The notes under the pieces: model-generated | The model's input: the letters and a program-made list of their open reading frames with translations, nothing else | Told to the model about the DNA's origin: nothing | Database searches by the model: none | Source of the DNA: Cyanophora paradoxa CCMP329 | Taxonomy: Eukaryota; Plantae; Glaucophyta | Assembly: GCA_004431415.1 (NCBI GenBank) | Contig: QPMI01000474.1 | Coordinates: 78,913-142,912, forward strand | DNA length: 64,000 bases | Direction: 5' to 3' | Position numbers and translations under genes: made by a program | In this document: positions 27,840 through 64,000 of the stretch, piece after piece | How positions within the stretch are numbered: the first letter of the stretch is position 1 | Layout of the letters: each line of letters begins with the position of its first letter

Positions 27840-29208
27840 CTTGTGAAGCCCAACGGACTGAAATTGGGATCAGGATCAAGCTCGGTCAGCGGCAGCAGGA
27901 CTGGACGCGCGTCTTCGACTTCTCGAACGGCGGGTCATATCGCGGGAATGTGGTGCGTCGGCTTTTGAACAGTCCCTGCAGCTGGCGACGTCGATGGCGA
28001 TACTGATTTCGCTGCCCGCCTCCCCTCTGGCCGATCGGCGCAGCTCATTGTTCTCCGCGCGGTGAGCGCGCAGCTAGCACGCATGCGCAGCTCCGCAGCT
28101 GCCGCCGTGGCTGCAGCATCTCCCGTCCGCAAGCGCCTGATCATGATCATGATGCACGTCGCTGACAGGACGCCGTCATCTCGAATGCTCCGAGCCCTGA
28201 CCACCTCTTCCTGATGGTTATGGATCGAGCTCGAACAAATGACCCAGTACCCCCGGTTTGCACGTTACTCTTTCTGTGGACCGACTGCGGCGCCGGCCGC
28301 GGGCCGGGTCGGGCGGGGCCCATATTAAAAGCACCCTTAAGCCTGTACATGTGCACGAGATATAGCCGCTGAGCTCTTGAACGGTCCCATGCCACTGATC
28401 GCCATCGGCCCGACTCCGCGTCCACAGGAATCACCGGAGGAGGACCAGGTCCATCTGTACTCGGCGTCCAGCACAGACACTGGTCAGATCGAGGTACGCA
28501 CGTGCACTTGCAAGAAGCGCGCTTGCCTGCAAGCGTGCAATTTCAATTGGATCACCGCTGCGTGCACGCAGGTAGGGCGGTGGTACCACGCGGTGACTGT
28601 GCTTGGGGCGGCCGGTGACCTGCACTTCTACCTGACGGACAGCGTGACGGGCACCCACGTCCACATCACCGACGGGACGCGCACCTCCGGCCCGCAGGGG
28701 CAGAACGTGACCATTCTGCCGAGCGGGCCACGCAGCGATAATTACATCGGCAGAGTTGCAACACCGGTGCGCGCTTAAGTTTGCAAGAGACGCGCACTTC
28801 CGATGCTCGCGATCGTGGATTGCTTCGAGCGCTAGCAATCTAGCTCGGTTTAAAGTATAGGTTCGATCAGAATGCCGGCGCCCGACTGAGCGCAAACATA
28901 CGTGCAGGACCCCAAGCTGTACACGCCGACGAACATGCAGCTGTCCGGTGCGTCCGCCTGTAAACATCTCATTTAAACAAATTTAGAGCCTTTGAGCTAT
29001 ATTCTCAAGTTCGCCTGCACGTTCGACATGAGGACGCGCCTGGGGTCGCAACCGCAAATGCATCTATACATGCACATGCTGACTTCGAAACCGCGGCCGG
29101 CCGCGGGCGCGTGCAGGCTTTCGGGTGTGGCCGGCGGCGCTTTCGGCGAGCGAGGTGCAGACGCTGGCGGCGGGTGGAGACATTGGGCGGCAGCCGCTCG
29201 TGCACCTC
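27840..29208 (+). pseudogene. host LamG/concanavalin-like domain gene, truncated at the viral left end
   Basis: Exon-like pieces WTRVFDFSNG, WYHAVTV...HFYL, DNYIGR, FRVWPAALSASEV (LamG_3-like). The frame runs directly into the viral TIR at 29209. Confidence 0.55.
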
Positions 29209-30387
29209 ACACATAGTAAAATGCGGAGTTTTAACCCTCGGCTTATCTTAATTGATTTTGTTGATATATCTCGTATATTCTATTTCAATCAATCGATAAT
29301 CTGTGTATATCTTATCGAATATTCATTTATTTCGATTATTTTGTATTCTTTTCGATATTTTATCGTAAATTTCTCTTATTTTCCGATTAGTCTTACTGAG
29401 TCTATCGATAATCTGTATATATTTCCGAATAATATAACTGAATCTCAATTAGATCTTGCCTCTGGTTAAAACTCCGCATTTTACTATGTGTGATTGGTCT
29501 AAAAGGTAATTGATTTAATCGATATTATATTCATGTACTTTCTCGATTAAATTTAATTAAATTTAATTCATTTAATCGGAAATATATCGCTAAACTCGAT
29601 TAAGATCCATAAAAGATTCATTTGTTAAATAAAACAAATCGATCTCTTATTGAATTCAATCGTAATTATACATGAAATTGATATGTTATTATCATGTTTT
29701 AATGATTCTAAGGGGGGACCCTTAGGATTTTTGAAATAATTGGGTGTGACAGGTGTGACAGGTCTATCCCAAACTTTTGATAGTTCATTTTTATGTTATA
29801 GAAAAGTTTGGGATAGACCTGTCACACCTGTCACACAAACCATATTCAGTAAGGATCTCTTTTAATGTTAAAATTTCAGTGTTAGTTGGTGTAGTTGATT
29901 CACAAAATGCATCCTGTCACACCTGTCACACAAACCATATTCAGTAAGGATCTCTTTTATAATGAAAAACTCAGTAACAATAAGTAAGAAGTTTATCTAT
30001 GTAATTCTACTTGAATAAACAAATGAAATAATCGAGTGTGACAGGTGTGACAGGTCCATCCCAAACTTTTGAGAGTTCATTTTTATGCTATAGAAAAGTT
30101 TGGGATAGACCTGTCACACCTGTCACACAAACCATATTCAGTAAGGACCTCATATATTGGTAAAATCTCAGTGTTAGTTGGTGTAGTTGATTCAAAAAAT
30201 GCATTTATACTCTGATTCATTGTTATTTCCTGTGAAATTTGAGTCAACTCAACCCACTTAGTCAACCCTTGCATTGAATTCGTAACAAAATCCATATACT
30301 TTTACTACTTTTACGATTAATATGAGTCAACCTTGAGTCCACTTAAATATAAATATAATATAATAGGGGGAATCAAGGGGAGATGCT
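29209..30387 (+). repeat. left terminal inverted repeat (~1.15 kb)
   Basis: Reverse complement of 59492-60644. Confidence 0.92.
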
Positions 30388-30680
30388 TATAAACATATGA
30401 GTTATTGAGCCTATGATACTTACATAGTCACGCTGGTCTCGGTAAGAGGATTCCGAATCTGTTTTTATCTTTGTGAGATGATGAGTTGGTGAAGAGATAC
30501 ATGCGTTTTAGTGTTTTGTATCGGATTTCATGTTATGACGTCATAATGACGATGCATATGTATATGATATATATGATATACCACGTGACTCGGGAGATCA
30601 TGACGATCACGGCGATGCAGTCAGTGTGATGTTATGATGCATCATGTAATGACTCATTCAATGACTCATTAAATGACGCA

Positions 30681-30810
30681 ATTTGGTGTATCCCCGTTTT
30701 CATGAGCCATTAAATAACTTATTTTATGATGAAATTTGGTGTATCCCTGTTTTCATGAGCCATTAAATGACTCATTTTATGATGAAATTTGGTGTATCCC
30801 TGTTTTTATG
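30681..30810. repeat. 53-bp tandem repeat (2.5 copies), also present in the duplicate at ~33606-33735
   Basis: ATTTGGTGTATCCC... units start at 30681, 30734 and 30787. Confidence 0.85.
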
Positions 30811-31047
30811 ATTTATTACATCACTAATGATGAGGTATTTATCACAGTCGAAGTTTCGCCGAAGTTTCGGTATTTCGCTGTCGGCATCTTCAAACGCTTG
30901 TATCTCATCACCAGATCATCGAAACGCAACGTTCTGCATAGCGCTGTGAAGCGCTTGATAAGATCTACAAGACTATGTGTATATCATGTGCATATATGTA
31001 TATCAGTCATACATATATTTGGAAAAAACGAGTTTTTGCCTAGCAAA

Positions 31048-32143
31048 CTAGCTAGTTTTGGTCCTTTCTCTTAGTGTTCTCTGAGGTTTAGGGGCTGTAT
31101 ATGACTCCTTAGTAGTCTGAAAGTCATTATACCATCTCTGGCTATTAACCTCAGAAAGTTTCTGTGTCCCTGCTATAGTGAGCTTTTTGAGTTCCCTGTT
31201 AACTTTCCCAGCCTTCTCCTTTCTAGCCTCTATCAAAGGCTTATCTGGACTTCATTAGCAGCTTCTATGCCTTCTCTCCTTATAGCAGCATCAGCCCTGG
31301 CTTCCTCTTTAGCTTGCTCCAAGGCATCCACTGTAGGGGTTTCTAGATATTCAACTGCATTCACAGGCAACAGCTCATGGAAAGCAAACCTGTTTTCTAT
31401 GATCTCACCAGTGGGACTCCTTAGCTTAAACTTAAAGCCTTCCCTACTATCAACAGTGTAAACCATCCTAGACCAATTGTTACCCTGTTTAGCAAAGGGG
31501 TTCTTCTCAACTTTCACTCTAACAAACATGCCAGGCTGCATGGTATCAAGGTAAGCTATTGATTTCTTGAATCTTTCATCTTCTAATCCCACTATATACC
31601 TATAATGCTCCTCTGTAGTTTCGCCTGGCTTCATCTTAGTAGCTGAGTGAACTGTATTATTGTAATTATACTCAATATCACCTAACACATCAAAGAATCT
31701 AGCTGTGTTATTAGCTATGCAATAGTTTGTGATCAGTCTCTTAATCTGCTTGTTAAAGGCTTCAATTCGACCTTGGCTTCTGTGGTCTGCAGTTCCACTC
31801 ACTTGGTGTTCTATGTATTTACTAGATAAATACTCCTGGAATATTCGATTTTGGAACTCACTCCCAGCATCTGATTGAACCTTTACTATGGGTCTTGCTA
31901 CTCTCATCTCAAGCTGTTTAAATGCAGCCAATGTAGTGAGAGCTGATTTATCCCTTATAGGTATGATATACCCAGTTCTCAGTGTAGATTCCATTGCAGT
32001 CATAAAGGTATCATAGCCATTGTTTTGTTTCTTATAAGCTGGGAAAAAGAGCAAATCAATCACATAGGTATCAAGGGGTTGCCTAATTGGGACCATGGGA
32101 TCTCTCTTCCTAGATATAGCAGGTGCATTGATCTGAACAACTT
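31048..32143 (-). pseudogene. 5'-truncated duplicate copy of the rve integrase
   Basis: Near-identical to 33973-35068 and cut at 32143 by the second TIR copy. Confidence 0.88.
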
Positions 32144-32149
32144 AAAACT

Positions 32150-33312
32150 CGGAGTTTTAACCCTCGGCTTATCTTAATTGATTTTGTTGATATATCTCGT
32201 ATATTCTATTTCAATCAATCGATAATCTGTGTATATCTTATCGAATATTCATTTATTTCGATTATTTTGTATTCTTTTCGATATTTTATCGTAAATTTCT
32301 CTTATTTTCCGATTAGTCTTACTGAGTCTATCGATAATCTGTATATATTTCCGAATAATATAACTGAATCTCAATTAGATCTTGCCTCTGGTTAAAACTC
32401 CGCATTTTACTATGTGTGATTGGTCTAAAAGGTAATTGATTTAATCGATATTATATTCATGTACTTTCTCGATTAAATTTAATTAAATTTAATTCATTTA
32501 ATCGGAAATATATCGCTAAACTCGATTAAGATCCATAAAAGATTCATTTGTTAAATAAAACAAATCGATCTCTTATTGAATTCAATCGTAATTATACATG
32601 AAATTGATATGTTATTATCATGTTTTAATGATTCTAAGGGGGGACCCTTAGGATTTTTGAAATAATTGGGTGTGACAGGTGTGACAGGTCTATCCCAAAC
32701 TTTTGATAGTTCATTTTATGTTATAGAAAAGTTTGGGATAGACCTGTCACACCTGTCACACAAACCATATTCAGTAAGGATCTCTTTTAATGTTAAAATT
32801 TCAGTGTTAGTTGGTGTAGTTGATTCACAAAATGCATCCTGTCACACCTGTCACACAAACCATATTCAGTAAGGATCTCTTTTATAATGAAAAACTCAGT
32901 AACAATAAGTAAGAAGTTTATCTATGTAATTCTACTTGAATAAACAAATGAAATAATCGAGTGTGACAGGTGTGACAGGTCCATCCCAAACTTTTGAGAG
33001 TTCATTTTTATGCTATAGAAAAGTTTGGGATAGACCTGTCACACCTGTCACACAAACCATATTCAGTAAGGACCTCATATATTGGTAAAATCTCAGTGTT
33101 AGTTGGTGTAGTTGATTCAAAAAATGCATTTATACTCTGATTCATTGTTATTTCCTGTGAAATTTGAGTCAACTCAACCCACTTAGTCAACCCTTGCATT
33201 GAATTCGTAACAAAATCCATATACTTTTACTACTTTTACGATTAATATGAGTCAACCTTGAGTCCACTTAAATATAAATATAATATAATAGGGGGAATCA
33301 AGGGGAGATGCT
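32150..33312 (+). repeat. second (internal) copy of the left TIR, lacking the first 15 bp
   Basis: Matches 29224-30387 at an offset of ~2925 bp. Confidence 0.9.
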
Positions 33313-33972
33313 TATAAACATATGAGTTATTGAGCCTATGATACTTACATAGTCACGCTGGTCTCGGTAAGAGGATTCCGAATCTGTTTTTATCTTTGTG
33401 AGATGATGAGTTGGTGAAGAGATACATGCGTTTTAGTGTTTTGTATCGGATTTCATGTTATGACGTCATAATGACGATGCATATGTATATGATATATATG
33501 ATATACCACGTGACTCGGGAGATCATGACGATCACGGCGATGCAGTCAGTGTGATGTTATGATGCATCATGTAATGACTCATTCAATGACTCATTAAATG
33601 ACGCAATTTGGTGTATCCCCGTTTTCATGAGCCATTAAATAACTTATTTTATGATGAAATTTGGTGTATCCCTGTTTTCATGAGCCATTAAATGACTCAT
33701 TTTATGATGAAATTTGGTGTATCCCTGTTTTTATGATTTATTACATCACTAATGATGAGGTATTTATCACAGTCGAAGTTTCGCCGAAGTTTCGGTATTT
33801 CGCTGTCGGCATCTTCAAACGCTTGTATCTCATCACCAGATCATCGAAACGCAACGTTCTGCATAGCGCTGTGAAGCGCTTGATAAGATCTACAAGACTA
33901 TGTGTATATCATGTGCATATATGTATATCAGTCATACATATATTTGGAAAAAACGAGTTTTTGCCTAGCAAA

Positions 33973-35356
33973 CTAGCTAGTTTTGGTCCTTTCTCTTAGT
34001 GTTCTCTGAGGTTTAGGGGCTGTATATGACTCCTTAGTAGTCTGAAAGTCATTATACCATCTCTGGCTATTAACCTCAGAAAGTTTCTGTGTCCCTGCTA
34101 TAGTGAGCTTTTTGAGTTCCCTGTTAACTTTCCCAGCCTTCTCCTTTCTAGCCTCTATCAAAGGCTTATCTGGGACTTCATTAGCAGCTTCTATGCCTTC
34201 TCTCCTTATAGCAGCATCAGCCCTGGCTTCCTCTTTAGCTTGCTCCAAGGCATCCACTGTAGGGGTTTCTAGATATTCAACTGCATTCACAGGCAACAGC
34301 TCATGGAAAGCAAACCTGTTTTCTATGATCTCACCAGTGGGACTCCTTAGCTTAAACTTAAAGCCTTCCCTACTATCAACAGTGTAAACCATCCTAGACC
34401 AATTGTTACCCTGTTTAGCAAAGGGTTCTTCTCAACTTTCACTCTAACAAACATGCCAGGCTGCATGGTATCAAGGTAAGCTATTGATTTCTTGAATCTT
34501 TCATCTTCTAATCCCACTATATACCTATAATGCTCCTCTGTAGTTTCGCCTGGCTTCATCTTAGTAGCTGAGTGAACTGTATTATTGTAATTATACTCAA
34601 TATCACCTAACACATCAAAGAATCTAGCTGTGTTATTAGCTATGCAATAGTTTGTGATCAGTCTCTTAATCTGCTTGTTAAAGGCTTCAATTCGACCTTG
34701 GCTTCTGTGGTCTGCAGTTCCACTCACTTGGTGTTCTATGTATTTACTAGATAAATACTCCTGGAATATTCGATTTTGGAACTCACTCCCAGCATCTGAT
34801 TGAACCTTTACTATGGGTCTTGCTACTCTCATCTCAAGCTGTTTAAATGCAGCCAATGTAGTGAGAGCTGATTTATCCCTTATAGGTATGATATACCCAG
34901 TTCTCAGTGTAGATTCCATTGCAGTCATAAAGGTATCATAGCCATTGTTTTGTTTCTTATAAGCTGGGAAAAAGAGCAAATCAATCACATAGGTATCAAG
35001 GGGTTGCCTAATTGGGACCATGGGATCTCTCTTCCTAGATATAGCAGGTGCATTGATCTGAACAACTTCTTGTTTTTTATAGAACTCTTGCAACTGCTTA
35101 TAGGATTCATCAGGTAACTCAGCCCTCATAGCTTGAAGCCCTTTGTAACCAGTTCTCACATCATAGAATCTCTTGGCAATCTTGCTGGTTTCTTTCACTG
35201 CAATAGCAACTGGGATCTCTACTGGGACAAGCTCTTTCATCTCTGACTTTTTTACAATTCGAGATTCTCCCTTTTCCTCCTTGGAACTGTGATAGGCAGT
35301 AGGTTACCTTGTAGTTGCTCAGTGGTTCTCCTAACTATTCTTCCAGTTGCTGGCAT
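33973..35356 (-). CDS. retroviral-like (rve, DDE) integrase of Polinton type, frameshifted
   Basis: YVIDL, VQSDAGSEF and GRIEAFN (D-D-E). YNNTVHSATKMKP. PGMFVRV...NWS SH3/KOW-like tail. Confidence 0.93.
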
Positions 35357-35359
35357 CTC

Positions 35360-38300
35360 TTAATTAAAAGGAACAGAATTAATACCATCTGGTAAGATGT
35401 ATCTCTTTGCATCAAAGCAGTTTAGGGCAACCCTTCTACTCACAGTGTCTATTATTGTGTGATCTGCCCTTCTTTTCTGCTTTGCAGTCACAGTCTTGCT
35501 GATACCTGCAAATAAACACTGTTTTAAATCATTAAATTGGAGTTCCTCAGTTGAAGTCCCAGAGAGCTTACTCCTCTCAATCTCAGCAGTTCTGAAACTG
35601 TAAACTTTAGCTCTCAGACCCACATACTCCAATATAGCAGAGCCAGGCATTTCATTTTTGTATTTACCTGGGGTCATTCTGGAATCACCTCCAAGGTCTA
35701 ATGCATAGGATATATTCTCTATATCTTTTTGTAGGGTCTTAGATTCGATATATAGACAAAAGGAGTCAGTATCATGGAATAGTAACTTTGCTTTTGTCCA
35801 TTGGGACCTTACAGTATCATAGAAGAACTTGTAGTTATGCAGTTTGGCTGCATCCAGAACATAAGCCCCAATAGCAACTGGCTTATCTAGCTTCACATGC
35901 TTTGTGTAAAACTCAAAGGCAACTGCTTTTTCGTTTATGGACTTGTTGATTTCACCAATGGGGAGGCTGCATATTTCATAAACAGTTTCTCACTGTTTGC
36001 AATCTTAACCACAGATCTACCTCTGCAAGATTCAATGCATTTCCCATAGATTGAGTTATTCATGAGTTTATAGAAATCAGCCTCGAATTTATTCACTGCT
36101 TTCCTTCTCATCTCAGTATTCAGCTCAATGTAGGGTTTCATTACAGGAGCCACAGTAAATGATAGGACCCTGTGAACCTTCTTTAGTTTCACCCCTTTGT
36201 CCAACAGATACTGTAGAAGAGGCTCAGAAATCACATAGTTGGTCACAGAACCAAAGGTTGCAGTTAGCTTAGGGGTCTTATCAAGCTCTTCTCCTGAGAG
36301 ATCTAATAGGCTCTTTTGATATTGTGATAATTCTGCATATTCTACTATTTTCTTGTTAATAATTAGGGGGAAATCACTGTGGTCTAGATATAGCCTAATT
36401 GGGTAATCCAGATCAACTTCCAGGAAACTGGATCTGTTATCTTGTGGGTTGAATTCGGTCTCCCATCTAAAATCACCAACTGGGATTGGCTGACTCAAAC
36501 AGTAGCCATACAAGTTGTTAGCATCAAACAGCATTATATGGGAGTTCTCACCATCAGCCTCAGCATACCTACAAGGCATTGTTGCAAAGCCACCCTGATT
36601 CCCCTCTCAACAAATTCGTATTGCTCTACATCACTTATAAGCTCTATTTTTGCCTTGGTGGTCCTAAGCATAGCATCCCAAGATAACCCAGGTGCAGATA
36701 CATAATGAACTGGGTCCAATCCATATACTGAGTGTGAAAGCCTTCTGAAAGCCTGGAATTTGCTCATTAACTCATCTACATCAGCAGCCCCAAAGTCCAT
36801 AAAATTACTTGCATCAATGAACTTGTAAAGACCCCATTGCAATGAAAGGTATTGATCAAAGTTTTTCGAAAGGATTTCGATTCGCTTTTTATCACCCATG
36901 CCTGCTATTTTTCTGAAAATGAATGTCCCACAGTCATCCATTTGGTCAACAACCACTGCTACTTTTGTTTGCTTTGAGATTCTCCTATGGAGATTGCAGT
37001 TTCTGCATGCAGGTGCAATGTAATTACCTGTGTGGTGATCATGATCCCTGCATTTGAAGTTTTCCTTGGTGAACCTCTCACTGCAAAGGTAACAGTGTTT
37101 GGTAGCTCTGTAAATAGCCTTTTGCTCATCTGTGAGTTCATTCATGGAATATTGGTGAACAGGAAATCGATTAGCTCTCTTGCTTTGGACTCCAAGCATT
37201 CAAACAGACCTCCCATTGGATCCTGACCCTCAAATCGAAACTCCTGAACATCTGCCCCAGTGACTATTCTAATGTTGACTGCTGAGACTTCCCTCTTGGA
37301 TTTCGATGCATCAATGGGGATGCTTCTATGTTCAATCTTGCAGTAAACCACAACAGGAAGCCAGACAGTTTTCCTGAGGTTTTTCAGTCCAAACTCTATT
37401 GTGGTGTCAGGCTTAGGGTGATTCCCTTTGAGAGTCTCCAATCAATGCATCTGTTTGAGTCCACATGAGCAGTGAGTTTAGCCTCAGACCTGAATCGAGA
37501 TAAGCATGTATCACAGTAGTGTAACTTTTGATCCTTGGTTTTATCAAGGGCAACTCTGAGAAGTCTTGAAAGGGACATGATAGTAATATAGTGACCATTC
37601 CCTTCATCATCATGAATGAGCATTAGATTAATCTTTTGCTTTCTGCCTGGGTTGCTGGATTGATGTAGGGATATATAACATCTCCATCCATTCCAAATAT
37701 GTTTATGCTGATGCCTGCATTTTGAGATTCGAATTTATCAATGATTTCAGCATCACAAGGAACAGGGAATGGATATTGTCGAAATTGAGAGCCAAAGGAT
37801 TGTATGTGGTTGGTGAGTATTTCCATTTGCGATATTGTGTAAGCTCACTTCTCTTGTGGAATTTACATCTTTCCTATGGATCCATGCCAAAATGGCATTT
37901 TCAAAGCAAGAATCATCAATATTTCGAATATTCACTGTGGCTCTCTTGGCTGCAATTGATTCTGGTGTTTTAACATAGCAGCCACCAGTTGGGCATAACT
38001 CATAATAGCAACTCTTAGCATTTCGATTCTCTCCAATCGATAGCTATCAACAACATTCATCTGTTCCTGACACATTTGGGCTGCTTTATTCAGCTCAGTT
38101 CGAATATTTCTCGATTTGGTTAATACAAAATAATCGCTGTAAATGTATTTCGATATCCAAACCTGTGGATTGCTGACTTTTACGAACTTGCAGATAAACG
38201 ACAAGCGAACTTTGATTGCCCTGAATTGATCCAGACTATCTCTTAAACGTTTGGTAGAGAGGTTGCAATTCTATCTAAATATTCAATCACATCTACCACA

Positions 38301-38593
38301 ACTTCCCTTCTGGCTCTGTATGTGAGCCAGCGATATAATTCATTCATGGCTGTTCCATCTTCTGCCTCTGGTTCTATTTGCCTCAGGCGATCGAGTTCAT
38401 CAAGAGTCTCAACTTTGTCATAGAGGTTATTGGCTTTTCTGGTTAATTTTGCTAAAGTGGGTCTGCCCTTGAAATAAATCCGATTTCCCGGTCATATTCA
38501 GCCTCTGTGATTTCATGGCTGCATACAGTGTTCCCAGTAATCCCATAAGTTCCCATTTCTTCTCTCTAATGAGTCTGTTGCTAATTCGGGCAT
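35360..38593 (-). CDS. protein-primed family B DNA polymerase (Maverick type), frameshifted
   Basis: DANNLYG (motif A), KLMNNSIYGK (B), DTDS (C), LRAKVYS. Endonuclease-VII-like Zn insert CYLC...DHDHHTG...CRNCNL. N-terminal NIRNIDDSCF...GHY region typical of Maverick PolB. Confidence 0.93.
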
Positions 38594-40031: not shown

Positions 40032-42303
40032 ATGAACGCCAAACAGACTAAATCGCTCAAATCGCTCGCTAACTGGCTCAGATCTGATGAGGAACTGTCC
40101 AAAAACATGATTATCCCAGTGAAACCTGACAGCAAAGACCCTGTTTTCAAGCATAAGGAGGTGCATGGTCCTGGGAAAAGTATGAGGAAGCGCTGGCAAC
40201 TAATCATATGTATCTTGGGGCATTCTGCTCTCAGACAACATGATGGTTATTGACTTGATGATGAGGAGGACTTTGAGAAATTCCGGGATATGTTTCCTGA
40301 TGACTTTGATGCCAATCAGCCATGGCAAAAACTAAAAAAGCTATCATGTCTACTTTAAACGACCTGAGAGTTCAATAAACTCAAAATTACCGATAAGCTC
40401 CTGGCTTTAAAGGCTTGAGAAGGTTGACCTGAAAACAATCACTGGAACTGGAACTTCTGACTGATCAATGTGTGTCCCAGTGTGAACAAGGCTTGGTAAT
40501 CTCCCCATGGGATGATACCTGTGATTTCAATGAGCCTACTGATGACTTCAAAAAGTGGATAATAGATAACTACATCTATAAGAGTGAGTATACTGCTAAT
40601 GCTACCTCACATGATGAACTGGAAAACAATATTATCAAAGAGCTGGTGGATATGGATTTATGCATCCCAATATAATCTCTAAAACTGAACTTGGCTTTAA
40701 CTTGATGCTGCTAACAAGGGACTCAATTGCCCATGCTGCAATGGTTCACATGAATCGAATAACTGGTATGTATGAAAGCTAAAGGAGATGATAACAAATA
40801 CATTGTGTCAAGCTACAGTGGAAATTGCAAAAAACGATTCATCTGCATTGGAATGCAATCTGATATCTTCAATCTTATAGATAAATCCGCTGTTCTGGTG
40901 GCGCTCATTATGATGTGAGTTTAGTATGCAAAGAGGTTCTTAAACATACTGGAGATACTCCAAAAAGTCATGGTTCAAACTCAATACTGATACTGGATTT
41001 GGAGCATGATGACACAAACCTAAAGATTTACCTAGATATAACCGTCTTGTTGTCCCCAATACCTTGGAAGGCTGTGCATTATAGTCAAAGAGCTTTAAAG
41101 GATGAGGAAACAAAGCAGCTTTCGAAGAAAGATCCAAAACATTGATGACCATTGCCAAAAATCTTAAACAATCAGGATTTCGCAAATCCCTTCTGACTGA
41201 CTTGTCCCACTGCTGAATGATGATGAATCTTGAGAAATTGACACAGTTCCATATGTATTGGATCGAAAATGTGTATTTGATCTGACCACTATGACTTTCA
41301 GAAGGTAAACTGGAAGATATGGTGAGCAAGACTGTGGTTATGACTATACTGAAAATGTAGACCCAAGAAAATAGAGCATCTCAATCAGATTTATAAAGAG
41401 ATTGTGGATGATCCAGCAGAGCGAAAGTATCTTCTGGCATCCATTGCAATTGCCCTTAGTGGATCAACTAAATCCAGAAGTTCTATATGTGACTGGTGCT
41501 GGTGCTAATGGTAAATCACTGTTCAGGAATACTGCAAACAGATATCTGTCGCTATTACAGCCTCTCGAAATATCCTATTGGACTAAGCCTAAAAAGAACT
41601 CATCAGAGCTACTCCTGAACTTGCCAAACTCCTTGGAAAGCGACTTGTATTCAGTAATGAGGCTGAAGATGTGATAAACTGCAGATCTCCAAATTAAGGA
41701 GGTCACAGGTGGAAATGAAATGACTGTGAAGCCTTGTTCAAAGACCAGTTATCCTTACCCCAATGTTTCAGGTCTACATTACAACTAATGACAATTTGAC
41801 TATAAATAAACCAGACTTTGCAATTCAAAGAAGACTTTCCTATCAGAGATTCAATAATATATTCAAGAGAAGCCAGAAGCTGGTCAAAAGAAGCTGACCC
41901 AACTCTGTTCACACTTCTACACAATGATGATGAGTATAAGATGGCTCACATGAAGATATTACTGGATATGTGGAAACAAAGAGGTTGAAGAGATCTTAAG
42001 AAGTCCCCCTCAATCGATTATTGACAGGGAATTAACTTTATAGCTGAAAATGATAGATTGGTGAATGGCTTCGAGATAATTTCGAGGTTACACATAATGC
42101 TAACGACTTTGTTTCCAGTGATATCATTACAAATCATACAAAGTGTTGATGATAAAGTTGAATGTGTATCTGTTATGAAAAGAGTAAGGAGATCTTCAAT
42201 GTTAAATCAAAAGAAAACGAGTTATGGTATTCTTGCCAGAGGATATATTGGATTCGAAAGATAACAAGGTTCAGAAGACAATGAAGATGATGCCGAATAT
42301 TAA
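40032..42303 (+). CDS. bifunctional primase-polymerase fused to a D5-like SF3 helicase, heavily frameshifted
   Basis: IIPVKPDSKDP, VIDLDD and YHVYFKRP (PrimPol-like). Walker A VTGAGANGKS at ~41490-41520. KEVTGG motif at ~41700. Confidence 0.8.
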
Positions 42304-43045
42304 AGAAAACGATTAATGATGAGATTTACATATATTTTTATAGCTTACTGAAAATGGTTTGTGTGACAGGTGTGACAGTCCATCCAAGAAAGCCTGGTGA
42401 AAAGTTGATTTTCAAAATCGATGGATAGACCTGTCACACCTGTCACACCTGTCACACCTATCGAAAAGACCAAAATTTGACAAGAATACTTAAAGCTTAC
42501 TTGATGTGTATAGTGAAGACAAAATGCAAAACTCTTGATGAGATGACCATGAATGAGTTAATAAATGCATAAAGCATGGAGATAGGGCATATATCGAAAT
42601 GTCACAGAGATTGATAGGTTACAATATGTATGCAGCAAAACCAAAGAGAATAGATCAGTAACATTCACATAACTGTTTCAGTGTCTGAGAATGCAAACAA
42701 AAAACAACAAAGCATATTTACAAAGTTATCTGTGACTTGCAATTGATTGCAAGTATAAAGCCAATTCCTTGTATATATTTTATAGCTGCCTCAGTGCATA
42801 CTGAGACCGCTTTTGCTCAATTATCTATAGACCTGGGGTCCATTGCTACTATCAGTAGGCAAATAATATTTAATCGGTCTCCCTCTGGGTCTCTGCTCCT
42901 CTTTTTGGCTTTTTGCGATAATAGGATGCCAGGGCTTGCTTTTTATACTCTCTATATGCTGGGTCCTCTATATCGTTTCTGCATTGCCAGAATGTGTCTT
43001 ATAGACCCCTCAGTAACAGGTTCATCACTGGTAAACTCGATTAAA

Positions 43046-45800: not shown

Positions 45801-47190
45801 TCATTTTTCTTTAAATGCCTTACGAAATGGTAACAATCTATAAATTAATTCTGCGTAAACCATCTTTGTCACAATAATAAAGCTATGCATGAGAGCGCGA
45901 ACATTAACATCGATTACCTTATCTGAAGGCATGTAGAGGGTGAGGAATGAAGAGGAGGAATTTGTTAAATCAACATAACCAGACTGGGCAATATTTCGAA
46001 TTGCCTTTTCTCCATCAAGGCAGAAGGATCCTGAAAGGACATAGCGATCAGCAACCTTATCCATGTTAGAGCATTTGAAGGCATCAGCAATTAGCTCAGC
46101 ACCTTTGAGTAGGGAAATTGGCTCAGTGGCAAAAAGTCGCTGACCATTTATTTCAGTTGTGAATGTTATCTTTGGAGTTGGCATAGGTCTTAAGAACACT
46201 GTGGGAGCCATTGGATTTGTCAACAGTTGCATTATCACGAACTGAAACAAGCAGAGCATATACAAGACCTGAGATTTGAGAGAGGTTAATTCGATTGGGT
46301 TGGGCATTGCCCTTGGCAGGGAAAGCACTAGCATCTACAAATCCAATATCAAGGGAGGGAATAGCCATGCCAGTAGTCTTAACTTTTTCAATTACAGTAG
46401 CGAAAAGCTCATCAGAAACATTAATAGCATGCATGTAAAGGCGAGGAGAAGTAATAGAAATACAGGGTTGTTGCACCAAGAGTAAAGTTGTGATGTTTTG
46501 ACCAACATTTGCAGAACAGTTTCAGCAGGGGCAGTTCCAAGACCATCATCTTTGAATAATCTACATCAGCTGCTGCAACAGTAAGACCACGACCACCATA
46601 GGAAGTTTCAACATAACCCTTTCCAGCATCCTTAAACCAAACAGTAACAACCATTTCACCAGATAAAGCACCAAGGGGAAGGTAGTGATTTAGCCAAGGC
46701 ACTGGATTTCAACAAAAATGAGCCACCAAGTCGGTTGGTTCCATGAGCAGGGATGCCATGAACCATGCCCATTGATCGTTTCTTTTTAGCTAGTTGATCC
46801 TCCGAATAATAGACCAGGGGGAAATGAGCAAGGAAATCAGATGGATGTAGGTGTAAGATCCATAGGTAATTTCAAGTCGCTGAACTAAAGCACCAACTGG
46901 GCGAGTGTATCCATTGCGAACTAGGTCAGTATCACCAGCAAAAGTGATGGCTGGAAGGTCGAAAGCAAGTTCGAGTTTTCCACAGAAATTGTAGCGAGGT
47001 AGCTTGAAGGAAATGCGATTTCCAACATTATTCTCAAAAGTATTGCTGGGATTCACAACAACTAGAACTGGCTTAGACTTGGATTCGAGACCAAGCATAA
47101 GGGAGTTATCCAGGAAAAAGGCTTTCGCCTCTCTGGGGTTGTTAGGGCTTCTTTCAGCGAAAGTCTTTGAAGAGTGGAAGTGATATCCAT
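45801..47190 (-). CDS. double-jelly-roll major capsid protein (putative), frameshifted
   Basis: About 450 codons, beta-rich. N-terminal NPSNTF...ISFKLPRYNFCGKLELAFDLP, YLPLGAL, C-terminal SGYVDLTN. Located between the ATPase and penton genes. Confidence 0.72.
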
Positions 47191-49200: not shown

Positions 49201-50735
49201 AGGCACCTGTAAAGTCAACTCTCATTGTGGGAGCATTCACATACACAAGGGGATAAATGCGAATATATTTGATTCTGAGAAAACCTATGTAAAAAGCATC
49301 CTTGATGCTGAGAGGAAATCCACTCAATAGAGCCACATCACCTGAGTTGTGAGCATTGTTAATGTTCTCACAGACATATATTTTGTTTGCCCATCTGATC
49401 GAATAAAAGACCAGTTGATCCCATCAGTGGATGTTGCCACATTGAAAGTCTTAATAAAAGCATTGGTGTCCCCTGATCCATAGGCAATCACAGAAGAGAG
49501 TTCAAAAGTATATGGAAAAGCAACTTGAAGGTATTCAGTGGGGGTTTCCCATATCTGTTCAGGAGCATAGGCTCCAGCTTCCCAGCCAAATGCTGAAGGT
49601 CTAGCCATGAAAGGCTCTTTACCTGTCACAGAGGATGAGGCAGTAAAGGCATCATCTGCAAGCTGATACCAATTAGCATCCAAAGGAGGTGATGTAGTGA
49701 GAGTGGATGAAATGTAAGCCTTTGTAGGGTTCTTTAGTTCATAGTTTGCTACTAGAAGGCTGCAAAGCTTATTAATCATATCATTGTTTGCTGCTATGTA
49801 TGTTTCAGTGAAAGCAAGCATATCTGGGATTTTAGAAGTGTCATCCAGGGAGCTTACTATATGATTTGGAAGAGGACTGATAGCCTATAGTATCTCCCAT
49901 AATCCTGATCATAGTTGTAGGGTAACAACTCCTCCATCTTATCAAGGGCAGAAAGCTCACTTGCAGCCATGAGCATGTTAATCAATGGGCTTCCATCTGT
50001 TGAGGCAATCCATGAGAGAATGCCCCAGCTGTTACAGTCTCATAAGCATAACCCACATAATCAGACTCTAAATGTGGGTCCACCTCTCCACAAGAGATAC
50101 TTATTACTATAATATCATCATCATCACTGTAAATCTTCTTTGCATGGCTGTAACCACACACACTGGGATTATTGTTTCCCGAAATGGCACCATCAATGAG
50201 ACAGACAATACTCCCCGATTGAAATCAACAATGCTTACAGGAGAGAAATATGTAGGAGCAGCAGAAGTAGCCCTAGCAGCAATCTTACAAGGCATAAAGT
50301 TGTAATTGTTGTCATTTGTGATAAATATTGGTTTCATATTCTGAGTATCAAAGGATGTAATCACAATGTCCTTTAGGGAATCCTGTATTAGTGATTCACC
50401 AGTAACTGAATTGATTGCAGTCTCCAAGGGTCCCACATCATACTTTGTATTAAAAAGGGCATTTTCGATTATATTTCGAGGATTTGCGAAAATCAAGGGC
50501 AGTTGAGTTAGGTAAATATTGTGTAAATCGTTTGCTGTCAGTTTAGGTTCACCTGGTTTATCAGGATGCCTTATATTCAAACCTATTGCAATGATCCCAC
50601 CAGTGGAAGTTCCACTCACAAGATCCACAAGATCGATTATTCTCCTGCCAGTTCGATTTTCGATTTCTTTAGCAGCCTGGTTATGATAATGCCCCTTGCA
50701 CCCCCCGAAAAGACTTAAACGACCTTGAGAGGCAT
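49190..50735 (-). CDS. patatin-like phospholipase fused to a discoidin (F5/8 type C) domain, frameshifted
   Basis: GGARG, GTSTG, ARATSAAPTYF and IDGA...NNP. The patatin C-terminal helix runs in frame into EYLQV...FIKTFNVATSTDGINW. Confidence 0.82.
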
Positions 50736-50778
50736 CTTTTACTTATCAGGAATTTTATAAATCCATATAGTAAAAGCC

Positions 50779-53700: not shown

Positions 53701-56604
53701 CAAATACGCAGCCCGTATTGAATAATGAAGATCTTAAAATTAATTCGAGCAATATATTTATTGAAAATCTCACAGTTACCAAAAATGCAACTCTACCACA
53801 TCATCCAACATCGAATGTTGTTTTAGATTGGTTAGCAAAACAAAAACACACAAAAGCAGATATTACGGATTTCGCCCATACTCACACAAAAGATCAAATC
53901 ACAGATTTCGCCCATACACACACCAAAGATCAAATCACAGATTTCGCACATACTCACACAAAAGATCAAATAACAGATTTTGCCCATACTCACACAAAAG
54001 ATCAAATAACAGATTTCGCCATACACATTTATGGGAGCATATCACAAATCCACCATTAACCTTCCACCAGATTCACACACTCATGATTATTCAGAGATTA
54101 CAAATAGCAACCACAGGCACCCATGGAGCGAAATGATGACCAGCCAGTGTTTGCACAGTTGAATGCAATCGGAAATGTTTTTAATGGAGTCACACTTTAC
54201 CAATCGAGTAATACACCTGAAAGATTGTATTTGAATGATCATTATGTAGTCTCAATGGGACTTTTACAGGTCAAACAGGCACACCAATGGTGGGAACTCT
54301 TGCAGTAAGATTACCCAGGGATCCAATCGTTAATGGAGTTTATATGGCGATTTTAATGGGAGTTAATGATACTTTCCCCAGTATCTATGTTACGAATTAT
54401 CACCCAGGAGAAACAGGACAAGTAGCGGATTTTTCAGCAGCAATTCAAGTAAATGTAACAGATCAAAGCCATATGATGGAGCAAGACCTAAAATGTTTAC
54501 AAGGGAGAAAGTTGTAAACTATCTTCCTGTTGGGACAACCCACAGATGATCACGGAAATGTGAGATTGCATGGATAAAACGACATCAGGTGGAGCCTTAG
54601 AAGTCAATCAGAGGATGGCAGCAAAAGAACTTACACAATACACCCTTTCAGGAGTAGTGACAGATGATTACCTTAACAATAAAGGATATCTTACAACAGC
54701 AGATTTAAGCAGCTATGTAACAGAAAGTGAATTGGGAACGACTCTAAATAATATACAACAGATGCAGAGTTAACAGCAGCTCTGGAAATTATTTACCTCT
54801 TACAGGTGGGACAGTTAATGGAACTGTAAACGCTACTAGTCTACAAATTGGTGGAAACACAATTCCAAAAGGATATGATTTCGATCAATTAGATGTAGTA
54901 TCAACAGATAGAAGCGCAAATAATTGGAATTTGAATTGGTCACCAAGAACAGGACAAACAGGATGTTATACACCACAAAATGATGAAGATTGTAGCGGTT
55001 GTTTTATGAGGTGGACTGTCCCCACAGGTATGAAATCATTTTATATTCAGCATATGCCTTGGTATAATGGCAGATATTTTGATATCTATGGTCAGACTCT
55101 CAATAACAATCAGCATTTCTTAAAACGTGTAAACGATTATCAAGGAATACAGTCAGTAAATCATGATGGGACAAATAATCTATCTTGTTTGTATCAATTA
55201 ATTGCGAGTTTTACAAGAATATTTATGTTCAAGGTCGAAAAGGTCGCATTCATCTTACGGGGTTTTGGTTGGAGTAGACAGAGAGCAACCGATAATGAGT
55301 TGGGCATGATTCTTGGGATAATATTTACAGTCGTCCCGCTTTAATAACAGCCGCAGACCTTCCACAAACCGCAACATGGGCAACAAATACATGGTTAAAA
55401 TCAACAGATGCAGTTGAGCGAATTTGGTTTGGTAATGGTGATTGCACATATATACGAGGGAGACCAAATGGTGATGGTGTCTCAATTGAATTCAGAACTC
55501 AGCAGATGGAGCAATTTTAAAGTCTTATAACAATGGTAACTTTTGGGTGAAAATACTATTACAGCACCCACTATTAATGCTACTACCAAACTCCAAATAA
55601 ATGGTAATGATGTCCCAAAGTTTCACACAGCGGATTCATCGAAGGAGGTATTGATTTAATAGATGTTCTTATAACGATTGGGAGTGGGCGTGGAGTTCAG
55701 CATGGGATCCATATTATAATTATGGTTCTTTCGTTTATAATAAGCAATATGATGACCAAACTTCTACCGCTTGATTGACTTCGATATACCCGATGGGATA
55801 TCACACAGGAACAGCGTTTTTAACTTATTTACCTTGGAAACGCACGACTTTTTGAAATTTGGGGAGTAATCGACAAGGAAATGAAGTTTTTATTACATCA
55901 GTGAATAGTTATCAACCATACGCCACATCTCCTGACAGTAACCACAGCGGTTTAAATAATGTTCCTATACATCTCGGTAATCGATTTTTGACTATTCGGA
56001 TTAGACCAAAGATTGGAAGAGTTCATATTATGGGTATAAGTTACATGAAAATTTGGACAGGAAATAGTTATGGTGGTCACACCGGCTATATTCATTGGAA
56101 TAATGTTTATAGTAGACCAAATCTTTTAACAGGAACTGTGGTAGTTGGTTTAATTCAAGTGATGGATACAATCGTATCCATTTTGGTAACAATACTTCTA
56201 CATACTTGAAAGGAAGGGAGATATCCTTGATTCCGAAATGAGCAAGATACTGATTTGTTACATGTATCATGGGGCGGATGTGGATAATTATTTAACACAA
56301 GGAAGTGACAGAAGATACAAAACAGATATAAAAAAGATACAGGCGCTCTTTCAGCGATTGAGAAATTAGAAGGAGTGAGTTTTAAACGAATTGGAAGCGA
56401 AAAAGACGGAACAAAATTAGGTTTAATTGCGCAAGATGTGGTAAAGGTAATACCAGAATTGTTAATGTGAAAAAGATGATGGTTACCTTATCGCTTGAAT
56501 ACACAGGATTGGTTCCAGTTCTCATAGAAGCCGTTAAAGAGTTGTCTCAGAAATGCAAGAGTCTACAAGATCAAATAGACCAAATTAAAAATGTAACAGT
56601 ATAA
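50779..56604 (+). CDS. giant fibre/tail-spike-like protein (possibly one ~1,900-aa ORF) with HxH repeats, LamG-like domain and C-terminal peptidase S74 chaperone
   Basis: YPPEDHxHDW repeats. GDLAEIIVFNRALS (LamG-like). HTHTKDQITDFA repeats. SDRRYKTDI...GLIAQDV...LVPVLIEAVKEL. No obvious intergenic gap between fragments. Confidence 0.7.
53845..54030 (+). repeat. 36-bp coding tandem repeat (HTHTKDQITDFA, ~5 copies)
   Basis: Directly visible. Confidence 0.9.
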
Positions 56605-58956: not shown

Positions 58957-59400
58957 ATGGAGACTCAATACAGGGCTTTCATGTTATGCTTGATTACAAG
59001 GCTAAACAGCTATTGCAACAGGACATGACATGTAGCTTCCTAGGTAATTGGATTATGAGAACCCTTGAACAAGCAGTATTAAGGCAAGGTATTAGGATTG
59101 TTCATAACATTGTGAGATATTTGATGGCAAACTATCACCTCCTGGATTTGCATTGGTTCTGCTATTAGATGAAAGCCATTGCACAGCTCATTGTTATTCC
59201 AATGAAGGCATGTTAGCAATTGATATATTCAGTTGTGGAAAGAAGCTCAGCATAAAACACAATCAGTGCAGATGAGATCGAAAAACAATGAATTTCTTCA
59301 CATTTGAGAAGACTGAGAGAATAAACATGATAGATTTCCGTTTTGATGGGTTTCTATAATGATGATCAGGGTGATTCTTTTTTATTACAATAACATTGAT
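58957..59400 (+). CDS. speD: prokaryotic-type pyruvoyl S-adenosylmethionine decarboxylase proenzyme (SpeD/SpeH family), frameshifted
   Basis: The frame from ~59120 reads FDGKLSPPGFALVLLLDESHCTAHCYSNEGMLAIDIFSCGKK, with the ESH autocleavage site and DIFxCG motif. N-terminal HVMLDY. Confidence 0.82.
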
Positions 59401-59491: not shown

Positions 59492-60644
59492 AGCATCTCC
59501 CTTCATTCCCCAATTATAATTAAGTGGACTCAAGGTTGACTCATATTAATCGTAAAAGTAGTAAAGTATATGGATTTTGTTACGAATTCAATGGGAGGTT
59601 GACTAAGTGGTTGAGTTGACTCAAATTTCACAGGAAATAACAATGAATCAGAGTATAAATGCATTTTTGAATCAACTACACCAACTAACACTGAGATTTT
59701 AACAATATATGAGGTCCTTACTGAATATGGTTTGTGTGACAGGTGTGACAGGTCTATCCCAAACTTTTCTATAGCATAAAATGAACTCTCAAAAGTTTGG
59801 GATGGACCTGTCACACCTGTCACACTCGATTATTTCATTTGTTTATTCAAGTAGAATACATAGATAACTTCTTACTTTTGTTACTGAGTTTTTCATTATT
59901 AAAGAGATCCTTACTGAATATGGTTTGTGTGCAGGTGTGACAGGATGCATTTTGTGAATCAACTACACCAACTAACACTGAAATTTTAACATTAAAGAGA
60001 TCCTTACTGAATATGTTTGTGTGACAGGTGTGACAGGTCTATCCCAAACTTTTCTATAACATAAAAATGAACTATCAAAAGTTTGGGATAGACCTGTCAC
60101 ACCTGTCACACCCAATTATTTCAAAATTCCTAAGGGTCCCCCCTTAGACTCAACAAAACAATGATAAAATCATATAAGTTTCATGTATAATTACGATTGG
60201 ATTCAATAAGAGTCGATTTGTTTTATTTAACAAATGAATCATTTATGGATCTTAATCGAGTTTAGCGATATATTTCCGATTAAATGAATTAAATTTAATT
60301 AAATTTAATCGAGAAAGTACATGAATATAATATCGATTAAATCAATTAACTTTTAGACCAATCACACATAGTAAAATGCGGAGTTTTAACCAGAGGCAAG
60401 ATCTATGAGATTCAGTTATATTATTCGGAAATATATACAGATTATCGATAGACTCAGTAAGACTAATCGGAAAAGAAGAGAAATTTACGATAAAATATCG
60501 AAAGAATACAAAATAATCGAAATAAATTGAATATTCGATAAGATATACACAGATTATCGATTGATTGAAATAGAATATACGAGATATATCAACAAAATCA
60601 ATTAAGATAAGCCGAGGGTTAAAACTCCGCATTTTACTATGTGT
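59492..60644 (-). repeat. right terminal inverted repeat
   Basis: Reverse complement of 29209-30387, ending ...TTTTACTATGTGT at 60644. Confidence 0.92.
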
Positions 60645-61373
60645 CAAATACGACATCCACAGTAGGAGGCAGAGTGGCTATATAAACACGAAGACGAAAA
60701 ACAGGACATAACACGTTGCCTGGAAGAGCCGAAATAAAAAGCTCGTGACCAATCTGAGTCTGATCTGTTTTAGAGCGAGAGACGCGGAGGACCATGCCAT
60801 CTGGCGGAAAGATAAATGAGGACCGCCGAATTTGCACAGTCTCAGAGCGACGGAGGAGCCAAAGAAACCGACGGTGATCATAGCAATAGAGCGACGATGG
60901 GTCTGTATGGAACACGATCGGAAGCTACCGCTAGCCGGCGAATATGTTCGACCGAAGGACGGCCGCTGGGCGAGTGGGGCCATCGCCCAGGACTCGGCGC
61001 AAGCCGTGAGGACGTGCTGAAGAAGCACTGAGCTGAAAAACTGAGGTATCAAGCGCAAGGTCTCACACTCATTACGAACTGCAGAAAAAGCTACATTTAT
61101 AGTTGAGAAGACGTAGTCATCGTCAGCAATATCGCACAAAAAACCGGCTAGAACCTCAGCATCGACGGGAAAAGGTAGAACACCCAGCTGAATGCAGAAT
61201 GCGAAAACGGCCAACCCACATTGCATATGGCATCTCGCGTGGATGGGGCAGATGCTTTGGTTTGCTAGAACGTAATGCGAGCACAGATGTGGGCCCAACG
61301 AGCTGCATCCACTGCAGGGTATGGTTAGAAGCATGAGGGTGTGCGCTCGATTGCATTTATAATTATTTGACAC
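60645..61373 (-). pseudogene. tyrosine recombinase, truncated by the viral right end
   Basis: FFG.LRRSE and SKTDQ...LCPV. The HxxR and catalytic Tyr region is missing beyond 60645. Confidence 0.8.
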
Positions 61374-61403
61374 TAGTTTGCAATTGGGTACAGCTAAACT
61401 GAA

Positions 61404-63304: not shown

Positions 63305-64000
63305 TTAATAATGCACGAGAATACAGGCTCGAGGCCGCCCGCAAGGGAGGAATTATATAGACAGCAGAAACAGCATCCATATATATAGGAGGGTTGGGTG
63401 GGAGCAAGAAGCGAAGCTGCTATCAAGCAACTCTGAGAGAAGCTGCAGCAGCTGCAGCGATAGCTCACTGCTGCAGCTCTTAGGAAGCTCGTAGGACTTG
63501 TTGCAGGTGCAACAAGTACCCAAGAAGTACTTGTTGCGAAGCAACAGAAGTGTGAATTTATGTAACATATACATTATTCACGCTGTCCGAAGTACGTTAT
63601 ACTACGTTCCTCGTATAACAACTATTCGGACAGCGCTCATTTCGTATATTGCAATTGAGGTATACTTGTACAATTGCCATGAAGAGCAAAAGAGCGAAGG
63701 CCGAGAGCCTGCAGACGAGTGCAAGCCTCTAACGGCACACAGAAGCACACATATATGTGAAATGCGTATGTATAATGCCATCGATGCGTTCGGTCGCCAG
63801 TCAGTGCACGAGCGATTTATGGGGGAGGCGTGCCTGAACTCCAGATGCTTGAACTGCGCAAGGGAAAGAAAAAATGGCGACCGAATCTCCATCTCCGGCG
63901 AGGGAGTATGCACTAGTGCCGTGCGCACTGAAAAGAAATACAGCAACAGATGCCACGCGAGGGCAGAGCTGTCCTGACAATTTGCAAGCAATAAATGTCG

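Follow-up and report, generated by a model that had tools for sequence, protein, structure and literature searches.

A long, mismatched terminal palindrome found in one orientation in an integrated Polinton-like element of Cyanophora paradoxa

How Polinton-like viruses and virophages that integrate by an rve (retroviral-like) integrase start their replication and leave the chromosome is the question raised by a locus of Cyanophora paradoxa CCMP329 (assembly GCA_004431415.1, contig QPMI01000474.1). We analyzed a stretch of 64,000 nucleotides of this contig (positions 78,913 to 142,912), here called the window, whose own numbering is used below. It contains an element of 31.4 kb and ~38% GC (29209 to 60644), with GC-rich host DNA to its left and DNA of about 50% GC to its right. 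A first-pass annotation had described imperfect hairpins at the termini of this element and had proposed that they prime replication in the manner of AAV and poxviruses.

Position, sequence, and folding of the terminal palindromes

The element is bounded by terminal inverted repeats (TIRs) of about 1.14 kb, the left one at 29209 to 30352 on the + strand and the right one at 59514 to 60644 on the - strand, with 97% identity by blastn. The left TIR opens with an imperfect palindrome of 283 nt (29209 to 29491) that is delimited by 28-bp arms (29209 to 29236 and 29464 to 29491). As the annotation had stated, the inner arm is a perfect inverted copy of the outer one, and the 28-mer has five matches within the window, compared to none in 100 shuffles. 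The same structure was confirmed at the right end (60364 to 60644), where the palindrome measures 281 nt, also has perfect inverted arms (60364 to 60391 and 60617 to 60644), differs from the left one by one substitution and four gap positions, and is the identical isomer.

Between the left arms lie 227 nt of 26% GC, in good agreement with the quasi-palindrome of ~225 nt that had been reported. When this interior was aligned with its own reverse complement, the score was 115, which was reached by 4 of 2,000 dinucleotide shuffles and by 0 to 4 of 1,000 shuffles in which words of two to five letters were kept. The adjacent 227 nt, which are equally rich in ATCG, served as a control and were not significant (191 to 309 of 1,000 shuffles reached the score). 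An origin of the palindrome from periodic ATCG words alone was ruled out by the shuffles that kept four- and five-letter words.

In the register of this alignment, 67 of the 107 aligned pairs of the interior are Watson-Crick, so that 40 mismatched pairs and 13 unpaired bases lie between the 28-bp arms. The predominance of pyrimidine-pyrimidine mismatches also holds (29 of the 40 on the + strand). At the left end, however, the + strand is the 5′ strand. Because its mismatches are mostly pyrimidine-pyrimidine, the 3′ strand, the one capable of priming, is A-rich and has purine-purine mismatches.

With the stem kept and the interior shuffled, the folding z score was -3.5 on the + strand (1/300) and -4.1 on the - strand (0/300); folding beyond the 28-bp stem was therefore better than in the shuffled controls, as had been expected. 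Folded without the stem, the interior was weak (z of -1.6, 12/200, and -2.4, 3/200). The 3′ strand folded better than the 5′ strand, and the predicted minimum free energy fold of the palindrome was branched, not a rod. By folding, the 3′-terminal palindrome is thus capable of folding back, as in AAV-type ITRs and rolling hairpins, and it is AT-rich and incompletely paired, as are the telomeres of poxviruses and ASFV. In this respect the proposed fold-back of the 3′ end stands; the strand described for it was the 5′ strand at the left end, and the 3′ strand is the one with purine-purine mismatches.

That these are true viral termini was borne out by short-read contigs, which place the exact terminus at 29209: pieces start or end there and the depth jumps. 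In four runs, contigs started or ended exactly at this base, and several different host flanks join it. The terminus had ~25 to 55 times the depth of the flank (3300/92 in run X1, 6500/118 in X11, and 5271/206 in X2), a ratio of depth and not of copy number. Given the many host flanks at 29209 and the high depth of the terminus, the element belongs to a multicopy family with many independent insertions. Of the 24 sequencing runs listed, 14 contained at least half of the sampled words, and X1 may be the source run.

Loop orientation among integrated copies

Terminal resolution in AAV inverts the loop, which gives two isomers. Concatemer resolution of the poxvirus type also yields flip and flop (PMC8956199). 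If the ends described here were formed in either way, by hairpin transfer or by symmetric concatemer resolution, both orientations of the loop should be found. Such an origin was the analogy drawn in the first-pass annotation, and the AT-rich, mismatched terminal palindrome is indeed similar to a poxvirus concatemer junction (PMC8956199). We therefore looked for the flipped isomer across genomic copies in the short-read contig graphs of four runs (X1, X3, X9, and X11), among 32 of the 234 pieces listed. The words of these graphs have 31 letters and reach beyond the 28-bp arm, so that the two orientations leave distinct words.

In all four runs, the contigs of integrated copies showed one loop orientation, and flipped k-mers were at error level. 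The depth was carried through undiminished from the inner arm into the loop of the same orientation: 3329/3300/3300/3297 in X1 (from the inside and the 28-mer), 6929/7000/7000/7063 in X3, 7929/8000/8000 in X9, and 6500, about 6500 (by inference), and 6950 in X11. The depth units remaining for any other words were 21.5 in X1, 13.3 in X3, 8.3 in X9, and about 7 in X11, compared to a single-locus depth of 92 in X1 and about 118 in X11. The single visible word of the flipped type had a depth of 7.5 of 3300 in X1, next to error words of 5 and 9. In X9 and X11, one contig spans 29491-29492 unbroken, which leaves host flanks that end in C as the only ones that could join a flipped loop. Neither a loose end after 29491 nor a strand-change joint was found among the pieces listed. 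Flips next to a host flank that ends in TC escape detection and can account for at most about 14% of the X9 termini (1150/8000), the share that follow TC. The test concerns integrated copies, some of them common to several strains, as read from contigs, which drop rare variants.

Resolution of the AAV and poxvirus types is contradicted by these data because both give two isomers and the integrated copies show one. Both ends of the window carry the same isomer as well, as judged from the alignment of left and right, and hidden flips would be confined to the TC-ending flanks. For integrated copies, flip-flop ends are largely refuted: dozens of independent ends in one orientation exclude the symmetric routes. 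Integration could in principle pick one isomer; even so, we find flip-flop replication scarcely credible for this element. Two distinguishable options remain, namely, protein-primed copying of a structured 3′ end and one-sided hairpin priming. Rolling-hairpin replication is believed to operate even at some bocavirus termini of which a single form is known (PMC8242256), and one-sided resolution therefore survives the one-isomer result.

Replication genes and the copying of the ends

The element encodes an rve integrase (33982 to 35350, - strand; Pfam rve, E of 7.8e-5) that is frameshifted in the assembly and 78% identical to a relative (P0001); a second, 5′-truncated copy lies at 31069 to 32141. 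Next to it, a Polinton-type pPolB occupies several frames at 35360 to 38491 (- strand; Pfam DNA_pol_B_2, E of 5.8e-11, and Endonuclease_7, E of 3.8e-6). From its N-terminal region on, it is collinear with a profile of 65 long Polinton-type homologues, in the order terminal-protein (TP)-like domain, vOTU-like region, degenerate exonuclease with an endonuclease-VII-like insert, and polymerase. The Cys and His motifs of the vOTU-like region presumably have the roles usual for such motifs. Many frameshifts break the genes of the element, which would fit an unpolished long-read assembly.

The TP-like (D1) fragment (37935 to 38270, - strand) was modeled with a pLDDT of 86.6 as helix-strand-strand-strand-helix-strand. 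The modeled topology fits that of D1/terminal protein minus the first strand (10.1101/2024.03.18.585575). Its best TM-score was 0.60, to an adintovirus protein (E of 6e-3), and the fragment, without the first strand, had no match in the PDB at an E of 0.001 or better. In D1, the last strand is preceded by a loop that holds the linking Ser or Tyr, invariably close to a Gly or Pro (10.1101/2024.03.18.585575). Here, the loop that joins the second helix to the last strand has 4 residues fewer than in most of the 29 homologues aligned, and it is devoid of the [GN]S[GN][WF] (GSGW-type) motif that is present in 49 of the 65 long homologues; a Ser remains, with no Gly or Pro. Protein priming may be impaired because the loop is short and has neither the motif nor a Gly or Pro. 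None of the three frames of 36700 to 37420 contains the three exonuclease motifs that 54, 63, and 56 of the 65 homologues have, and about 95 profile positions of this domain are deleted; the polymerase motifs persist. Both the loop and the exonuclease were read from one indel-rich assembly copy. The endonuclease-VII-like insert (36990 to 37133, - strand; Pfam Endonuclease_7) has a DHDH...CxxCN motif, which we take to have its usual meaning, and an insert with DHDH occurs in 12 of the 65 homologues.

A probable primase (Prim-Pol-like) fused to an SF3/D5 helicase lies at 40100 to 42300 on the + strand, fragmented by frameshifts. The region contains a Walker A motif, GAGANGKS, and other motifs whose primase and SF3 helicase identities are our assumption; TIGR01613 matched one fragment with an E of 0.04. 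No Pfam match was obtained for the region, a homologue search with the helicase fragment found none, and the assignment is weakly supported. Two candidate machines, the TP-pPolB with its short priming loop and the probable primase-helicase, are encoded in one element, so that replicon turnover may have been caught here midway. The scanned frameshifted fragments, which included 106 fragments of at least 38 aa from unassigned regions and represent part of the frames of the element, had no match to a HUH Rep, a protelomerase, or a RuvC-type resolvase; a divergent enzyme could be missed in such a scan.

What was directly established is the structure, its exact position at the host junction, the single isomer, and a TP-like, vOTU-like, pPolB gene accompanied by an rve integrase. 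In the reading that we favor, to which we give about an even chance, the palindrome is a conserved tip in one orientation whose 3′ fold-back is bound by protein as an origin or cap, and the end is copied straight from a 5′ primer with no hairpin transfer. All the functional steps of this mechanism are ones that we infer. The A-rich 3′ strand would snap back during strand-displacement synthesis, or after a fork driven by the primase-helicase had left a 3′ overhang. With the perfect 28-bp stem, a duplex terminal origin would form again on the spot, with no need for a 30-kb panhandle, and the 3′ end would be shielded. Purine-purine bubbles would keep the fold meltable and could offer a surface for protein binding or packaging. 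The terminal-protein primer, or the primase, would copy the end directly, comparable to the end patching of Streptomyces or to initiation of the adenovirus type. Direct copying would preserve one orientation, and the integrase, by inserting open ends, would place the same isomer in every provirus.

Straight copying is favored because a single isomer is its prediction. It is also in line with the many independent host flanks that join the same tip, with the structure beyond the stem that beats the controls, with the N-terminal domain of D1/TP topology that the pPolB retains, with the scanned fragments free of HUH Rep, protelomerase, and RuvC matches, and with a sister terminus that carries a compensatory pair (see below). 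Against it stand the atypical TP loop and the absent exonuclease motifs, both of one assembly copy, and the weak primase-helicase call. Furthermore, the free 3′-OH at the base of the 28-bp stem would be a good primer, and no block to its use is visible.

The 3′-OH is central to a rival in which the A-rich 3′ hairpin itself primes, replacing an impaired TP, and mismatch-directed, one-sided resolution leaves one isomer, as at the left end of autonomous parvoviruses. Asymmetric resolution requires a dedicated nickase, as in MVM (our literature search found no paper on this requirement), and no HUH initiator was seen in the scanned fragments. Also against this rival, the TP-like fold and the vOTU-like Cys and His motifs are still there. 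The rival is kept alive because the TP loop is shortened, and the loss of proofreading with polymerase motifs kept, the endonuclease-VII-like insert with DHDH (common to 12 of 65 homologues), and the better folding of the 3′ strand all agree with it. Precedents are the single-form termini of some parvoviruses (PMC8242256) and the terminal palindromes of Halocafeteria, which accompany non-pPolB replication genes (10.64898/2026.07.28.741278). We consider one-sided priming doubtful but credible. In a more elaborate version, which we think unlikely, the pPolB has given up protein priming and starts from the purine-mismatched 283-nt 3′ hairpin, and the integrase or the polymerase's own endonuclease-VII-like domain nicks one side, which both regenerates the single isomer and excises the provirus. 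If true, this hairpin-start and one-sided-nick route would be a mode of replication and excision not yet shown for a Polinton-like virus or virophage.

It is also conceivable, if quite improbable, that the palindrome serves excision or packaging, not priming. For excision, nicks on opposite strands just 3′ of the 28-mer arms would allow the AT-rich 283 bp to melt and free the virus, whose A-rich hairpin end would reintegrate as the same isomer. For packaging, the bubbles would be the signal. The 28-mer of the integration tip does occur twice per end in the required geometry, the interior has 26% GC, and the hairpin mismatches of vaccinia virus serve packaging and not DNA synthesis (PMC8956199). 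However, our analysis revealed neither an excision scar nor a host end capped by a hairpin, and the perfect duplex (-328 kcal/mol) is far stabler than the two hairpins (about -46 and -51 kcal/mol).

A sister terminus, related systems, and other features of the element

A divergent sister terminus of 350 nt (run X11, record 12) covers the two arms, from which it differs at 10 and 11 positions, and has its center replaced (114 letters for 103). We compared it in a pairing register fixed beforehand by the self-alignment of the window palindrome. Six of the 21 differences are listed; two of them, 29257 T>C and 29441 A>G, lie opposite each other in this register and restore a pair (T-A to C-G), and the other four fall at bulged, unpaired, or mismatched positions. 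With 77 of 124 arm positions paired, the probability that all four would miss a pair is roughly 2%, as calculated from the six listed differences. Of three other polymorphisms, two break a pair and one makes a pair. Taken together, the sister terminus and the polymorphisms give modest support to selection on a rod-like fold.

These comparisons bear on the view that the tip was once duplicated by folding back and that the palindrome persists as a neutral relic of this old event, selection acting on the 28-mer only. The weakness of the interior when folded alone would fit, as would a fold-back-like join at 32143 (described below), by which such accidents may happen, and accidental annealing is named as an alternative in the Halocafeteria preprint (10.64898/2026.07.28.741278). 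However, divergence has left the interior with 67 of 107 pairs but has not touched the inner 28-mer, the mismatch bias is strong (29 of 40 pyrimidine-pyrimidine on one strand), and the sister family retains the layout with a compensatory pair. A neutral origin therefore appears very improbable.

The terminal 20- and 22-mers had no match in viral contigs or JGI metagenome contigs. Queries with the integrase and the capsid protein matched no viral loci and one distant metagenome locus (L005, 36%); four distant pPolB loci had 33 to 39% identity. No comparable terminal palindrome was present in the fetched parts of L005 and these four loci, whose true ends possibly lie outside those parts.

Terminal palindromes have been described for endogenous virophages (subtypes 1, 2, 5, and 6) and PLV subtype 4 of Halocafeteria seosinensis (10.64898/2026.07.28.741278). 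In its accessible text, this preprint proposes hairpin priming by analogy with parvoviruses and poxviruses, with no test, and the idea of hairpin priming at terminal palindromes is thus already in print. Like those palindromes, the one described here is found at the extreme tip of the TIR, beside the host junction, in a small, rve-integrated DJR virus of a protist. The Halocafeteria palindromes are close to perfect and short, that of subtype 5 having 52 nt, whereas the present one is 283 nt long, has 13 unpaired bases in addition to 40 mismatched pairs, and would be missed by the screen used there, which allowed at most 4 mismatches and a gap of at most 10 nt. Long, mismatched palindromes of such a kind would be overlooked by standard palindrome screens. 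In addition, the Halocafeteria palindromes occur preferentially with non-pPolB replication genes, whereas here the element has a pPolB, and the accessible preprint text contains no isomer test, whereas one isomer was found here. What is new is the length and mismatch bias, the presence of a pPolB whose TP loop is atypical, and the finding of a single isomer. We did not find a long, mismatched, single-isomer terminus described for a pPolB PLV; "hairpin" is absent from the main text of PMC12721341, PMC10120064, and PMC12220804, and subscription papers and preprint supplements may bear on the point.

With Polintons/Mavericks, the element shares a collinear pPolB that includes the D1/TP and vOTU regions (the TP loop being atypical), an rve integrase, and long TIRs (1.14 kb, 97%) (10.1101/2024.03.18.585575). 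Unlike Polintons, which have 15 to 20 kb and a Polinton-type capsid, it has 31.4 kb and a capsid that looks NCLDV-like, and for these two reasons we file it as Polinton-like. Further differences are the additional probable primase-helicase, the missing exonuclease motifs, the shortened TP loop, and the long terminal fold-back. An Ulp1-type maturation protease had no match among the scanned frameshifted fragments. The word "hairpin" is absent from the Polinton paper (10.1101/2024.03.18.585575) in the text available. Streptomyces telomeres, whose palindromic 3′ overhangs are filled by TP-primed synthesis, offer a functional likeness: a palindromic, single-stranded 3′ end of a few hundred nucleotides copied straight in one orientation (PMC5449611). 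They differ in being bacterial, with several short, GC-rich palindromes and Tap/Tpg (PMC5449611), and there is no homology. The AT-rich, incompletely paired palindrome resembles poxvirus telomeres (PMC8956199), and the ability of the 3′ end to fold onto an inner copy resembles parvoviruses (PMC8242256). Unlike in poxviruses and AAV, one isomer is present here, integration is by rve, and no A22/RuvC resolvase or HUH Rep was matched in the scanned fragments. The NDDVs of haptophytes are likewise small, integrated viruses of a GC-rich eukaryote, and their capsid protein is NCLDV-like, as that of the present element probably is; NDDV Phaglo-G has 61% GC and tandem-repeat flanks, whereas the present element has about 38% GC and TIRs (10.1101/2022.07.28.501842). 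Since the host is found in many public sequencing runs, free genomes are examinable in principle.

The probable NCLDV-like capsid protein (MCP; 45870 to 47190, - strand) is 51 to 72% identical to P0002 in four pieces. Its Atlas feature score to Capsid_N/Capsid_NCLDV clusters was 0.98 (12 to 18% of members; recognition below threshold), its structure model had a pLDDT of 35, and no sequence match was found in Pfam or the PDB. Profile scans revealed a patatin-like phospholipase (50107 to 50742, - strand), an F5/8 type C domain (49324 to 49884, - strand), and a phage tail-fiber-like C terminus (56386 to 56604, + strand). A homing-type endonuclease is also encoded, and an S-adenosylmethionine decarboxylase fragment (59108 to 59272, + strand; Pfam AdoMet_dc, E of 2e-9) represents an auxiliary gene of polyamine metabolism, which is unusual in a Polinton-like virus.

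Inside the left TIR, two subterminal repeats of 181 nt with a spacing of 292 nt (29732 to 30204), seen in the repeat listing and the sequence, contain ~100-nt palindromes with arms TGTGACAGG/CCTGTCACA. They are mirrored in the right TIR (59664 to 60123), and a related copy (42344 to 42460) directly follows the helicase gene; these palindromes are candidate protein-binding sites or transcript-end hairpins. A third copy of the terminal palindrome, with the outer 8 nt missing, lies at 32143 to 32417, at the junction of a 2.93-kb tandem duplication (29217 to 32143 and 32143 to 35068, 99.8% identical in the assembly, real or artifactual). Without this duplication, the element would measure 28.5 kb. 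At the junction (32135 to 32162), integrase sequence is followed by 9 bases that match the reverse complement of the terminal arm and then by the forward arm. From its sequence, this looks like a fold-back or template switch inside the 28-mer, if it is not an assembly artifact.

No target site duplication (TSD), which has 5 to 6 bp in Polintons, was found at the junctions (29189 to 29208 and 60645 to 60664), whose flanks seemingly come from different loci. The left flank in run contigs runs on into empty-site sequence that is not in the window. Probably, each junction derives from a locus of its own, the two having been joined in the assembly or by recombination, and a TSD is therefore unreadable in the window; the element may be a composite of copies. 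Adjoining the right end is a DIRS/Ngaro-like retrotransposon (60645 to 63400, - strand; RNase H E of 9e-10, RT E of 0.04), also with a probable methyltransferase and tyrosine recombinase. The virus appears to end within, and to interrupt, a frame of this retrotransposon that we take by its motif to be recombinase-like and that had no Pfam match. Nesting of viruses with Ngaros is known for EMALEs (PMC8547959).

At the left junction, several other host flanks have the same last three to five bases as 29205 to 29208, in a list biased toward such matches. Together with the share of X9 termini that follow TC, a target-site preference at integration is possible. Finally, the host flank has two alleles at 28923 to 29050, which, with the GC richness of the flanks, would fit a diploid protist or alga. 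The ratio of the two is 1:1 in X2, about 1:1 in X4, and 2:1 in X11, indicating a diploid or aneuploid host.
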